The notes below the pieces were generated by a model. That model made no database searches. It saw only the letters and a list, made by a program, of their open reading frames with translations, and was not told where the DNA came from. This document shows positions 15,861 to 64,000 of a stretch of 64,000 nucleotides of DNA, in pieces (positions within the stretch are counted from its first letter, which is position 1; each line of letters opens with the position of its first letter). Source of the DNA: an uncultured Acidobacteriota bacterium (GTDB lineage: Bacteria > Acidobacteriota > Thermoanaerobaculia > Multivoradales > UBA5704); NCBI GenBank assembly GCA_963770895.1, contig CAVYRF010000002.1, forward strand, positions 1,472,001 through 1,536,000, written 5' to 3'. The position numbers were made by a program, and so were the translations under genes.

Positions 15861-17075
15861 TCAGAGGGGGCGCTGGCGGAAGCCGCGCGGATCGCGGGCG
15901 AAGGCGCGCAGCTGGCCGCAGGCGGCGCTGACGTCGTCGCCGCGGCGGCGGCGCAGCGTCACGGTCATGCCGCGCTGGATGAGGCGCTGCTGGAACGCTT
16001 CGATGCGGGCGGCGGGCGGCGGCTGCATCGCGGAGCCGAGCACCGGGTCTGGGTTGATGGGGATGAGGTTGACCTTGGCGCGCACCCTCGCGAGCACCCT
16101 GACCAGGTGGTCGGCGTCGGCCAGCGCGTCGTTGAAGCCGTCGATCAGCAGGTATTCAAAGGTGATCTTGCGCCCCCGCTCCAGCGGATAGCGGGCCAGC
16201 ACCGCCAGCAGGTCGGCCAGCGGGTAGCTGCGGTTGATCGGCATGATCTGCGAGCGGCGCGCGTCGTCGGGCGCGTGCAGGGAGACGGCCAGGTTGGGCC
16301 GCCGCGGCCAGCCGGCCAGCTCTTCGATGCCGGGGATCACGCCCGCGGTCGAGATGGTGATGCGCCGCAGCGAGATCGACAGGCAGAGGATATCCAGCGC
16401 GGCGCGCAGGCTGGGCAGGTTGAGCAGCGGTTCGCCCATCCCCATGAACACCAGGCGCAGGCCGGCCGGGGGCAACCCGCGATCGGCGCGGATGGCCAGC
16501 ACCTGCGACACGATTTCGCCGGCGGTGAGATTGCGCCCCGCGCCCCAATACCCGGTGACGCAAAAGGCGCACGCCAGAGCACAGCCCGCCTGGCTGGAGA
16601 TGCACAGCGTCCGGCGATCGCGGTCCGGGATGTCGACCGCCTCTATGCTGGCGCCATCGTGCAGCTTGAACAGGTACTTGCACGTCCCGTCGACGGACTC
16701 CGCGCGCGACGCGATCTGCGGCCAGCCGATGCGAAAGCGCTCGGCCAGACGCGAGCGCAGGTCGCGGTGCAGCTCGGTCATCTCCGCGAACTCGCGCACC
16801 CCGCGCACGTGCAACGCCTGAAAGATCTGATCGGCGCGGAACGGCCGGTCGATCACCTCGCCCAGCGTCGCGCGCAGCGCGCCGGGCGGGAGCCCCAGCA
16901 GGTCCGGCCGCTCTGCCGCGGCCGCATCCGTCCCCGCGGGCAGCACAGCCGAAGCAGCGGGCGCCCCGCCGGCGACGGACGTCGGCAATTCCAGAGCGGT
17001 GGACGCGGAAGACGCGATGGACGCTGCGGACGGAGACGATGGCGCTGCCGGCGTGGGCGGGTTCACGTCAGACAC
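15861..17075 (-). CDS. rlmN: Dual-specificity rRNA/tRNA m2A methyltransferase RlmN
   Basis: CISSQAGCALACAFC radical-SAM motif, FMGMGEP, AACGQL. Start placed at GTG 17075, overlapping the upstream stop. The 754-aa ORF call is over-extended. Confidence 0.95.
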   Translation of the reverse strand: MSDVNPPTPAAPSSPSAASIASSASTALELPTSVAGGAPAASAVLPAGTDAAAAERPDLLGLPPGALRATLGEVIDRPFRADQIFQALHVRGVREFAEMTELHRDLRSRLAERFRIGWPQIASRAESVDGTCKYLFKLHDGASIEAVDIPDRDRRTLCISSQAGCALACAFCVTGYWGAGRNLTAGEIVSQVLAIRADRGLPPAGLRLVFMGMGEPLLNLPSLRAALDILCLSISLRRITISTAGVIPGIEELAGWPRRPNLAVSLHAPDDARRSQIMPINRSYPLADLLAVLARYPLERGRKITFEYLLIDGFNDALADADHLVRVLARVRAKVNLIPINPDPVLGSAMQPPPAARIEAFQQRLIQRGMTVTLRRRRGDDVSAACGQLRAFARDPRGFRQRPL

Positions 17076-61042: not shown

Positions 61043-61351
61043 CTAGTCGAGGTCGAACGGACGCCGTGGCGGCCCCTGGTCGGGTTCCTCTTCGGCCCGC
61101 CGCATGGCCTCGCGGAACTTCTCTTCCAGCAGGCGGTCGCGGTCCTTCAGCGCCGCGACCTCCCGTTGAAAGACGTCTTCCGCCCGCGCCTTGTCCTGGT
61201 CCAGCCCCTGCAGCAGGGAGTCGAGATCCTTGCCCCCCGCCGGCGGCTGCTTGGGCCGGCGATGCGACAGCACTTCGCCGGTCGCGGCGTCCACCACCAG
61301 CTCGGAGCCGCATTCGGGGCAGCGCGCGGTCAGCTTGTGCGTCTCGCTCAC
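61043..61351 (-). CDS. Small hypothetical protein (CxxC N-terminus, coiled-coil, RPFDLD C-terminus)
   Basis: CPECGSELVVDAATGEV...LLEEKFREAMRRA...RPFDLD; TACAAT 6 nt before GTG. Confidence 0.85.
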   Translation of the reverse strand: MSETHKLTARCPECGSELVVDAATGEVLSHRRPKQPPAGGKDLDSLLQGLDQDKARAEDVFQREVAALKDRDRLLEEKFREAMRRAEEEPDQGPPRRPFDLD

Positions 61352-61539
61352 GTCCGCATTGTAGCTCGGTTCGCCGCCTGGTACCTGCGCGCCGGCCGGC
61401 GCGCCCCAGGGGCGCCCGCGAGATTCGGCGCCGCCAACCGTGGCGGTCGCTCCTCCCCGGCCGGCCGGCACAGCCCGATCTGGCGCTGTCGCAGGTCGAG
61501 GCATCGAAGCTCGCGGGCACCCGGAGGCTCACCCGGCGA

Positions 61540-61698
61540 TCAGCAGATGCACTGCGGCCTTGCCAGGCCGGTTTCGGTTGGGGTGCATTTCAGCGAGACA
61601 CCGCCCGCGGCTTCCTTCAGGTTTGCGCTCTCCAGCGCCTTGAGGGTTTCCCGGTGCAGGGTCAGAGGCGTGCTGCGCTTGATGCCCTTCTTTTGCAT
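61540..61698 (-). CDS. Putative RiPP (lanthipeptide-like) precursor peptide, 52 aa, double-glycine leader
   Basis: Manual translation MQKKGIKRSTPLTLHRETLKALESANLKEAAGG-VSLKCTPTETGLARPQCIC*; CAGGAG RBS 6 nt upstream; below the ORF-track length cutoff. Confidence 0.8.
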   Translation of the reverse strand: MQKKGIKRSTPLTLHRETLKALESANLKEAAGGVSLKCTPTETGLARPQCIC

Positions 61699-61747
61699 TG
61701 CGGTCTCCTGTGCCTGAGTTGGAGCCGTCCTTTATCAGGCGGCCCTC

Positions 61748-64000
61748 TCAACGAGGTGTGGGCAAGCCTTGAGAACGATCCGCCCCCAGCTGACCGCGCC
61801 CGCGACCGCGGCTGGTGGACAGCGGGGCAGGCACCCACAGCGCAATTCCGGCGGCGATCGCCAGGGCGGCGATCAGCAGGCCGGCAACGAAGCCGCGCGG
61901 GCGGTAGAGCAAGTCCAGACGATGGGCGCCGGGCGGCAGCGGCGCGCTCAGCAGGCGGCCGGCAGCGGGCGCCGGGGCCGCCCGGCGATCGATCAACAGC
62001 CGCCAGCCACCATCCTGATAAACGCTGGTGACAAGGGTTGCCGCCTGGTCGCGCGGCCGCACGCGCGCCGCGATCTCCTGCTCGTCGCGGTGCCTCAGGT
62101 CCAGGCCGCCCTGCCGCCACTCGCCCGCGTCGCGCGCATCAGCAGTGGCGGCGGCGGTGAGATACAGGCGCGGAGCGACCTCGGGCTGGCGGTAGATCCA
62201 GCCGGCTGGCCGGGCGAAGACCAGCTGCCAGGGGGCCGGCAGGCGGATGCCCGGCGCGGTCAGCAGGTAGCGGACGCCGAGACGGCGGTACAGCGGGTCG
62301 CCGGGCGAGCCCAGCTGCGGCAGCTCGCCCCACCAACCCGCGGTGATCGGCGCCAGCAGCCCCAGATAGGGCGCGGGGGCCATCGGGTTGTAGACGCGGG
62401 CGTCGTCCAGCTCGAAGAGCGATGCCAGGTTGGGCGGCAGCGCCCGGCCCAGGGCGGCGATGCGTTCGCCGCTGCTGGCGGCCAGGTCGGTGAGGACGGC
62501 GAGCGGCGGCGGCGGCAACGCCAGGCGCAGCGGCATCGCGGGGTTGGCCGGAGCATGGGCGAGCAGCAGCTCGGCGGCCACGGCCGCCGCCAGGCCTGCC
62601 GCCACCAGCCCGCGCCAGCCGCGACGCCGCGCGATCAGGCCGGCCGGCAGCGCCAGCAGCAATGTTGCCCCGGCCAGGAAGCGCGCCTGCCAGCGCAGCC
62701 AGCCGAAGCGCAGGACCGCCAGGCGTGCCGGATCGCCCGGCGCGGGATGGGCAAGGTAGCCCCAGGCCAGCACACCCGCCAGGGCAGCAGCCGCCACCAG
62801 CACCGATAGCCGGTCCAGCTCCCCGCGGCGGTGACGCTCCAGCCCGCAGGCGCCCAGGTAGGCCACACAGAACGCCACCACCATCAGGCACCGGCCGCTG
62901 CCCGCGAGCGCCGGAGCCGCCGCCAGCAGCATCCGGTGCACCGGCGCCGGGTCGGCCAGCAGCAGCAGGCACAGCGGCACGGCCGCCGTCGCCACGGCTT
63001 CGCCGGGCAGCCATCGCCGCCGTCCCGCCCCCGGCAGCGCCGCCGCCAGGGCGGCCAGCAGCATCACCGTCCCGGCGAACCCCGCCGCGTCCTCGTTGGT
63101 GTTGCGCAGCCCCCAATAGCCAAAGTAGCGGCTGTTGCCGTACGCGTTGGGCGCCACGATCGGCAGCCAGCGCATCGCCAGCCCGCCACCCGCGGCGACC
63201 TGCCCACCAGAACAACAGTCACCACCCGCACCGGCCCCTTCGCCGGAAGCGCTCGCCAGCGACTGCGTCCGGGCGGCCGGCGCCGGGTGGGCCAGGCGCT
63301 CGGCGCGCAGGGTTTGCGGCAGGTAGTCGACCGCCGGCAGCAGCGCCGGCGCGGCCAGGCCCGCCGCCACCGCCGCCGCGGCGCCATAGCGCCCCAGCAG
63401 GCGCCGCCGCAGGCCGGGCGGGCAGCGCCACAGCGCTTCGCACGCGAAGGCACCGGCCAGCAGGCAGGCATAGAGGATGGTTTCGGGGTGCCCCGCCAGC
63501 AGCAGCGCGGCCAGGCTGCCGGCGAGCAGCAGGGCATCGCGGCCGCCGGCTTCCGGCGCCGCCACCCGCACCAGGGCGTAGAGGACGGCCGGCAGCAGCG
63601 CCGCGGCGCTGGCGAGCGGCCAGCCCACCCACAGGACGACGAATCCGCACAACCCGAAGGCGAGGGCGCCGGCCAGCGCCGGGCCGACGGCCAGCCCCTG
63701 GCGGCGCAACAGCAGATAGGTGAAGACCAGGGCCAGGTAGACCCGCAGCGCCGCCATCACCGCGGCCCCGCGCAGGGGCGGCAGCGGCAACGCCGCCAGC
63801 GCCAGCGGCGCCAGGGCCTGCGCCTGGGGATCGGCCAGCAGCGGCATGCCGGCGCCCACCCGCGCGTTCCACAGCGGCCAGCGGCCGGCGGCGAGGCGGC
63901 GGCGCGCCGCGGCCAGCGACGGCACCACCAGCTCGATCAGGTCGCCCTGCAGGGGGTTTCCCGGCACCGCCGCCGCCGGCAGCTGGCGAAACGGCACCGA
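61748..64000 (-). CDS. YfhO-like multi-TM membrane protein (GT-C-type glycosyltransferase-like); 5' end beyond the window
   Basis: PLWNARVGAGMPLLADPQ, LLAGHPE, C-terminal YQDGGWR...PPGAHRLDLLYRP. Confidence 0.82.
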   Translation of the reverse strand, partial: SVPFRQLPAAAVPGNPLQGDLIELVVPSLAAARRRLAAGRWPLWNARVGAGMPLLADPQAQALAPLALAALPLPPLRGAAVMAALRVYLALVFTYLLLRRQGLAVGPALAGALAFGLCGFVVLWVGWPLASAAALLPAVLYALVRVAAPEAGGRDALLLAGSLAALLLAGHPETILYACLLAGAFACEALWRCPPGLRRRLLGRYGAAAAVAAGLAAPALLPAVDYLPQTLRAERLAHPAPAARTQSLASASGEGAGAGGDCCSGGQVAAGGGLAMRWLPIVAPNAYGNSRYFGYWGLRNTNEDAAGFAGTVMLLAALAAALPGAGRRRWLPGEAVATAAVPLCLLLLADPAPVHRMLLAAAPALAGSGRCLMVVAFCVAYLGACGLERHRRGELDRLSVLVAAAALAGVLAWGYLAHPAPGDPARLAVLRFGWLRWQARFLAGATLLLALPAGLIARRRGWRGLVAAGLAAAVAAELLLAHAPANPAMPLRLALPPPPLAVLTDLAASSGERIAALGRALPPNLASLFELDDARVYNPMAPAPYLGLLAPITAGWWGELPQLGSPGDPLYRRLGVRYLLTAPGIRLPAPWQLVFARPAGWIYRQPEVAPRLYLTAAATADARDAGEWRQGGLDLRHRDEQEIAARVRPRDQAATLVTSVYQDGGWRLLIDRRAAPAPAAGRLLSAPLPPGAHRLDLLYRPRGFVAGLLIAALAIAAGIALWVPAPLSTSRGRGRGQLGADRSQGLPTPR

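Follow-up and report, generated by a model that had tools for sequence, protein, structure and literature searches.

A putative class I lanthipeptide precursor in an uncultured Acidobacteriota bacterium, one of about 96 genome-dispersed paralogs lying mostly far from candidate maturation enzymes

Our analysis of the open reading frame (ORF) at 61540..61698 of the window (the whole 64-kb stretch of DNA analysed, C2:1472001-1536000 in genome coordinates) leads us to interpret it, with moderate confidence, as an orphan class I lanthipeptide precursor (LanA) that is matured in trans, which would make it the class I equivalent of the prochlorosins. In the genome (8.2 Mb, 70.8% GC, three contigs), about 96 dispersed paralogs share a conserved leader, each with a core of its own; this arrangement therefore suggests a library in which one enzyme set serves many substrates, and all of the ~96 precursors are probably made into ring-containing peptides by a single remote set. 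The pathway that we infer, from leader recognition in trans through dehydration and ring formation to cleavage and secretion, is as follows. The 33-residue leader (LxLxRx5L, with a GG end) would be recognised by the single full-length LanB, which would glutamylate and then eliminate the Ser/Thr of the 19-residue core; a LanC cyclase would join the three Cys to the resulting dehydro residues, thereby closing as many as three thioether rings; and a C39-peptidase ABC exporter with its HlyD-type partner would cut after GG33 and secrete the product. Class I dehydratases draw on glutamyl-tRNA-Glu (PMC9993889). The enzymes proposed for these steps are encoded 1.2 to 3.7 Mb from the peptide gene. To our knowledge, there is no published class I precedent for a LanB acting in trans on ~96 cores. 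Were one LanB/LanC set to process them all, it would surpass every known class I lanthipeptide machinery in substrate tolerance, and the family would be a combinatorial library of natural origin in a soil phylum that is abundant yet poorly cultured, of use in peptide engineering and in studying the purpose of such libraries.

The features on which this interpretation is built are:
61540..61698, minus strand, LanA-like precursor peptide gene, ATG to TGA (52 codons plus TGA)
61600..61698, minus strand, predicted leader, residues 1-33, MQKKGIKRSTPLTLHRETLKALESANLKEAAGG, with LxLxRx5L and a double-glycine end
61543..61599, minus strand, predicted core, residues 34-52, VSLKCTPTETGLARPQCIC, 19 aa with three Cys, one Ser and three Thr
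61705..61709, minus strand, Shine-Dalgarno (SD) sequence AGGAG, 6 nt 5' of the ATG
61376..61747, minus strand, intergenic segment carrying the peptide gene, boundaries approximate (tblastn and DNA alignment, five congener loci)

The encoded peptide has 52 residues, MQKKGIKRSTPLTLHRETLKALESANLKEAAGGVSLKCTPTETGLARPQCIC (from the ORF listing and the sequence). The preliminary description had proposed a 52-codon frame behind a well-spaced ribosome-binding site, the motifs LTLHRETL and L-x4-L-x4-GG in the leader, and a 19-residue core with one Ser, three Thr and three Cys, all of which are borne out: the frame runs from ATG to TGA behind its AGGAG, and both motifs and the core composition are as claimed. 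Relative to the end of the leader, Leu occupies positions -7, -12 and -15, Ala -4, and the two Gly -2/-1. GC content by codon position is 0.56/0.52/0.81 (the median GC3 of the picked genes is 0.89), and judged by these features the ORF looks like a real gene. Equally accurate was the statement that the surroundings hold no LanB, LanC, LanM, YcaO or C39 gene and a single radical-SAM gene. Searches with the Pfam models for LanB (PF04738), Lant_dehydr_C (PF14028), LanC (PF05147), LanM (PF13575), C39 (PF03412) and YcaO (PF02624) returned no match in the 64-kb window, in which the only radical-SAM match lies at 16125-16598, 45 kb from the peptide gene. No immunity or transport gene adjoining the peptide gene was found in the window sequence.

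A scan of window positions 61250-61950 gave no promoter-like site, and a terminator scan of the same interval gave one site, on the wrong strand and inside the CDS, with 0.6 expected. In four sequencing runs, the sole contig from an RNA library covers 61170-61320, inside the downstream Zn-ribbon gene, leaving the peptide gene uncovered; the peptide region is present in two soil DNA runs. The RNA-library contig, from a rhizosphere metatranscriptome, differs from the Zn-ribbon gene at 2 of 151 bases, and DNA carry-over is possible. The Zn-ribbon gene itself (within window 61043-61363, minus strand) probably starts at GTG 61351 rather than at ATG 61504, because conservation over five genomes begins there; a conserved TACAAT box at 61358-61363, 6 nt upstream of this GTG, suggests that its mRNA is leaderless.

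Comparison with congeners suggests how the peptide gene may have arrived. The YfhO-like and Zn-ribbon genes that flank it are adjacent in four of five congener loci (G001, G002, G003 and G007; G009 differs upstream), and none of the five has the peptide gene at this junction. With ~300 bases more here than at the congener junction, the peptide gene therefore looks inserted. An ortholog in G007 occupies a different locus, beside an unrelated secreted protein, and the precursor genes therefore appear to move as very small units. There was no repeat or mobile-element signature, and a blastn search of window 61352-61760 against the genome produced one weak 50-bp match.

The closest ortholog, P0002, has 52 residues and 85% identity, with the core VSLKCPETQTGLVRPQCIC and the same length and Cys pattern as the query. 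That of the congener G007 (contig G007:C87) is 67% identical, starts at a GTG behind AAAGGAG and has the core ITRLCPPTYTGIEGKPCIC. A homologue search that depends on shared 5-residue words returned, for that reason, two candidates only, the query itself and P0002. The three orthologous cores are equal in length and keep S/T2, C5, T8, T10, G11, C17, I18 and C19, so that all three Cys and three Ser/Thr positions are retained in 3/3 orthologs. Against G007, dN/dS amounts to 0.26 for the whole gene, with 0.12 for the leader and 0.69 for the core; RiPP precursors usually combine a constrained leader with a free core. This pattern bears on whether the ORF might be a decaying or silent copy without a product, a reading that would suit the recent-looking insertion into a conserved junction, the absence of promoter-like sites from the scanned interval and the lack of RNA cover on the gene. 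Given the intact frame, the strong SD site, the low leader dN/dS and an ortholog 85% identical with its length and Cys pattern preserved, we consider it very improbable.

To delineate the family, a profile was iterated from the query ORF over a database of 119,748 stop-to-stop ORFs with a minimum length of 25 aa (cut-off E<=1e-3). Searching the genome with the single peptide had retrieved four loci besides its own at E<=1e-3 (40 matches at E<=10); the profile rounds converged at 76, 95, 96 and 96 matches, with no match in the reversed database and an E-value of 1.8e-10 for the query ORF itself. Each of the 96 matches sits at the C-terminal end of its frame, with the stop 5-44 residues after the leader, and the leader MKK..LxLxRETLxxL..GG (consensus MKKxxxKLxLxRETLRxLxxxxLxxxAGG) is present in 96/96 members. 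These genes form 86 loci spread over all three contigs. A start codon was assigned for 93 of them; among these, the start is ATG in 87, an SD-like site (GGAG/GAGG/AGGA at -17..-4) precedes it in 85, GC3 is the highest of the three codon positions in all 93, and the length is 42-75 aa (median 54). The only upstream words enriched across the family were SD-type (AAGGAG-type) hexamers, with no other shared motif. The cores are 18.4% Cys, 13.1% Thr and 8.4% Ser (proteome: 1.0, 4.9 and 5.1%, respectively), i.e. Thr is enriched 2.7-fold; Cys occurs in 93/96 (three are Cys-less), and two or more Cys in 85/93. All of the 93 cores compared are distinct, with a median nearest-paralog identity of 0.42.

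Most of these precursors are orphans by location. For 88 of 96, no Lan or C39 gene lies within 10 kb, which means that cluster-based genome mining misses nearly all of the family; the eight that do have one within this distance are to be set against 5.2 expected from random placement. The two largest recurrent neighbour clusters of the 86 loci, beta-propeller/BNR-like secreted repeat proteins (a mixed set) and HD/GAF signalling proteins, were examined as dedicated partners and ruled out, their distances varying from 86 to 5748 bp. Giant NRPS genes (up to 7597 aa) occur 86 bp to 5 kb from precursors at nine of the 86 loci (e.g. C1:2007280-2023954 and C1:1807574-1830614). The genome also has 48 above-cut-off matches to TIGR03434, the Acidobacterial duplicated orphan permease (ADOP) of MacB/FtsX type, of which six lie within 300 bp, and 11 within 5 kb, of a family precursor, with roughly 1-2 immediate neighbours expected by chance; examples are C2:3875885-3879853 (L059), C2:4834755-4840023 (L060) and C1:1413072-1415882 (L048). 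These pairs may be a first functional hint for the 'orphan' permeases, as exporters or immunity pumps. The number of ADOP matches is also in line with a place of the genome in Acidobacteriota.

The family extends well beyond this genome. A 31-sequence profile run against 1.84 billion public proteins matched 11,279 representatives of 50%-identity clusters at E<=1e-3 (48 at E<=1e-10), and 15/15 representatives inspected have the same layout. Among 20 entries of ten public clusters, eight are named, six as 'hypothetical protein' and two as 'ribosomal protein S25', the latter a wrong name for these family members. It is possible, and we propose it tentatively, that the family, which numbers over 11,000 public clusters at the 50% identity level, goes almost entirely unannotated.

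Candidate maturation and export enzymes are encoded elsewhere in the genome. The only full-length LanB (C2:5180053-5183589) is 3.65 Mb from the query (a second LanB-like match is weak and covers the N-domain only). It is 46-49% identical to the LanBs of G030 and G027 and 63% to that of G002, adjoins a LanC with WCYG and CHG motifs (Zn ligands), and lies in a locus syntenic with that of G002 (chorismate synthase, RNase II) that lacks a precursor. A C39 ABC exporter at C2:2970256-~2972600, 1.44 Mb from the query and 58-60% identical to the exporters found in clusters of relatives (see below), is accompanied by an HlyD/GAF protein and another LanC. The LanC nearest to the query is 1.17 Mb away, and strong C39 exporters are at least 1.44 Mb away. 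Besides LanB and its neighbouring LanC, the Lan-type genes comprise two LanM, a LanKC, a LanL-like enzyme and eight further stand-alone LanC-like genes. Of the eight precursors within 10 kb of a Lan or C39 gene, five lie 145-316 bp from a stand-alone LanC-like gene; three of these five LanC-like genes keep the Zn ligands (two CHG, one CCG), and the two others, devoid of Zn ligands, adjoin Cys-less cores. In the latter two (C1:1579909-1581510 and C2:2707653-2709298), GWAYADAG and IGFGPAG stand where WCYG and CHG are expected, and the peptide 145-147 bp away is of an 'ETLLPL' sub-type whose Cys-less core contains His; such pairs may carry out a different modification. The LanKC-type class III synthetase (RamC_N, kinase and LanC-like domains; L064:3989-7093 = C2:3859988-3863092) has an N-terminal signal-peptidase S26 domain, which may be a built-in leader protease.

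Two of the three refuting conditions named in the preliminary description, a lack of paralogous or orthologous leaders and a lack of RiPP maturases anywhere in the genome, were thus tested and do not hold: 96 leaders in this genome, 1-56 in each congener (n=9) and two orthologs of the query on the one side, and LanB with LanC, two LanM, LanKC, a LanL-like enzyme and C39-ABC exporters on the other. Its idea of a dispersed family modified in trans is supported, the dispersal (88/96 more than 10 kb from a Lan or C39 gene) fitting it, and modification in trans is what we infer.

The link of this leader to class I enzymes comes from same-order genomes with few family copies. In G030, the gene order is LanA-LanC-LanB-methyltransferase-GAF protein-C39 ABC; G027 has two clusters, HlyD-C39 ABC-LanA-LanC-LanB on contig C11 and HlyD-C39 ABC-six tandem LanA-LanC-LanB on contig C7; and in the congener G002 the chorismate synthase and RNase II genes flank the single family copy, which has LanC at ~2 kb and LanB at 3.5 kb. 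Gene order in relatives thus shows the leader type linked to LanB/LanC/C39 clusters. Since orthologs of LanB/LanC and the C39 ABC are intact but scattered in the present genome, an ancestral cluster therefore appears to have been present and then dismantled.

The leader type itself is already described; scale and dispersal are what is new. According to Walker et al. 2020 (PMC7268733), an LxLxKx5L leader motif replaces FxLD in some Bacteroidetes class I LanAs, and many such leaders end in Gly-Gly, with a C39 protease often in the cluster. The query reads L12-T-L14-H-R16-ETLKA-L22 at LxLx[K/R]x5L and has G32-G33 ahead of the core, in which four Ser/Thr and three Cys provide the residues required for (methyl)lanthionine; the LanB and LanC genes (often with a C39 protease) that lie next to such precursors are absent beside it. 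Against NCBIfam NF038153 (lant_leader_L1a, class I lanthipeptide), its residues 3-33 align to profile positions 3-32 of 32 with 13.7 bits (E 0.055), short of the cut-off of 22, which is passed by three paralogous loci in the genome and by 4/4 cluster-embedded peptides tested (23.0, 39.5, 40.3 and 29.2 bits). At E<=10 the NCBIfam scan of the query listed NF038153 and NF042906 only, with no Nif11- or NHLP-type leader, and the Pfam scan gave no match. The likeness to the LanAs described by Walker et al. (PMC7268733) and modelled by NF038153 covers the L12-x-L14-x-R16-x5-L22 plus GG leader and the Ser/Thr/Cys-rich core and, in Acidobacteriota relatives, a leader that adjoins LanB, LanC and C39 ABC and passes NF038153. 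The cases published there are clustered and come from Bacteroidetes, whereas the query is an Acidobacteriota sequence, scores below the cut-off, lies megabases from the enzymes and is one of ~96. The earlier suggestion of an uncharacterised peptide system has accordingly to be corrected as regards the leader type, which is already covered by Walker et al. 2020 (PMC7268733) and by NF038153. In the library searched, the motif word 'LxLxK' occurs only in Walker et al. 2020, and no account of an expanded or scattered family of class I precursors in Acidobacteriota came up.

In prochlorosin biosynthesis (ProcA and ProcM of marine picocyanobacteria), class II precursors with a Nif11-type leader are processed by a LanM, and the Zn-ligand motif of ProcM is CCG. 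The present family resembles this system in its many dispersed precursors, conserved leader, hypervariable cores and very few synthetases. It differs in that the leader is of the class I L1a type, the LanMs of this genome have substrates of their own, and the dehydratase is a protein distinct from the cyclase, of which there are several paralogs. The prochlorosin-like logic proposed at the outset applies to the dispersed library but most likely not to a ProcM-type LanM, the probable agents being class I LanB/LanC. A strict prochlorosin fashion, in which one of the two LanMs dehydrates and cyclises all of the dispersed peptides as class II precursors, has to be weighed against the gene context of these LanMs. 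Both are intact, one (LanM-1) has a family member 3.5 kb away, and LanM occurs in 18/24 peptide-positive and 3/17 peptide-negative genomes; yet each LanM gene has its own co-directional upstream precursor, with a leader of a different kind (AWKDP/AWRDE...NPA...GG):
L062:8213-8461, minus strand, LanM upstream precursor
L061:7448-7696, minus strand, LanM upstream precursor

Both cyclase domains carry CHG, not the CCG of ProcM-type enzymes. The distinct leader of these own precursors, together with CHG, argues against a strict class II reading; in addition, six peptide-positive genomes have no LanM, including G018 (100% complete, 32 peptides, LanB present), and the cluster-embedded copies of the leader accompany LanB, not LanM. 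Thus, even with GG leaders being typical of class II (as stated in PMC7268733), we give this alternative little credence. The abstract of PMC10783134 speaks, for the prochlorosin system, of 'a solitary promiscuous enzyme'. As a side observation, LanM-2 adjoins NRPS condensation and adenylation genes.

A similar leader could also serve another class of RiPP enzymes, e.g. a radical-SAM protein as for the GG family of Bacteroidetes modelled by TIGR04149 (GG_sam_targ_CFB), which has in common with the query a K-rich N-terminus, an LxLxKE(T) box and a GG end. Cluster-embedded relatives indeed match TIGR04149 weakly (18.8 to 27.1 bits, cut-off 25), and one of the 31 radical-SAM matches of the genome lies ~0.9 kb from a family member. 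However, TIGR04149 did not match the query at E<=10, the neighbours of the 86 loci include no recurrent radical-SAM family, and the only such gene in the window is 45 kb off, which leaves this explanation a very slight chance.

The preferred class I assignment was further assessed by co-occurrence in 41 related genomes, 24 of which have the family (88 copies in this genome by the cross-genome search, 1-56 in each of nine congeners and 0-54 in the rest of the taxonomic family). At E<=1e-10, PF04738 (LanB) was found in 24/24 peptide-positive vs 5/17 peptide-negative genomes, at E<=1e-100 in 21/24 vs 2/17, and LanC in 24/24 vs 8/17, counts that are descriptive only, because these genomes are related to one another and the stricter threshold was set once the data had been seen. 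Of the peptide-positive genomes, three give no PF04738 match at E<=1e-100 (G005, which is 84% complete; G020, with two adjacent pieces; and G024, with fragments), and of the peptide-negative ones two, G017 and G029, have this LanB type. Such exceptions count against the class I reading, as do the sub-threshold NF038153 score, the remoteness of every enzyme gene, the family member near LanM-1, the 26/93 cores with more Cys than Ser plus Thr, the three Cys-less ones and the promoter scan that gave no site. This co-occurrence has to be taken into account when asking whether the product is a lanthipeptide at all. The query is like C39 (PCAT) double-glycine peptides in having GG at -2/-1, hydrophobic residues at -4, -7, -12 and -15, and C39 ABC and HlyD genes in the genome, and unlike them in that the exporter is 1.44 Mb away, with cleavage after GG33 being a prediction. 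A secreted peptide, unmodified or disulfide-bonded, could thus be cut and exported by a C39 ABC or, for some paralogs, by an adjacent ADOP-type permease (6/48 within 300 bp of a family peptide), and would be in keeping with the double-glycine layout, the C39 exporters of the genome and cores in which Cys (18%) is much commoner than Ser or Thr and outnumbers Ser plus Thr in 26/93. We regard it as unlikely, though deserving of consideration, in view of the odd number of Cys (three) in the query, the Ser/Thr positions kept among orthologs, the Thr enrichment of the cores, the tight co-occurrence with LanB and LanC, and the presence of the family inside LanB/LanC clusters of relatives.

Over a wider range, 150 further genomes were sampled evenly from the phylum, each with a completeness of 90% or more (up to 44 candidates scored per genome); they included five with a match, having 1, 1, 2, 15 and 1 copies (one of the five, G182, is unpublished). 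With so few positive genomes and copies, the large expansion therefore looks lineage-specific. We tentatively suggest, as a broader scenario for which the chances are somewhat less than even, that the prochlorosin strategy was reached independently with class I chemistry in one soil Acidobacteriota family, where a single LanB and LanC paralogs (some with their own peptide) would mature up to ~100 precursors per genome, the precursors would spread by insertion into unrelated intergenic regions, and ADOP permeases would provide export or immunity.

Two further occurrences were noted outside this lineage. G150, a 3.5-Mb genome from another family of the phylum, has 15 matches, several of them in tandem pairs, and represents an apparently independent, smaller expansion. 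Outside Acidobacteriota, a contig of an uncultured Planctomycetaceae MAG (L080:6001-6099) has a leader-plus-core match with 46% identity over residues 14-48.
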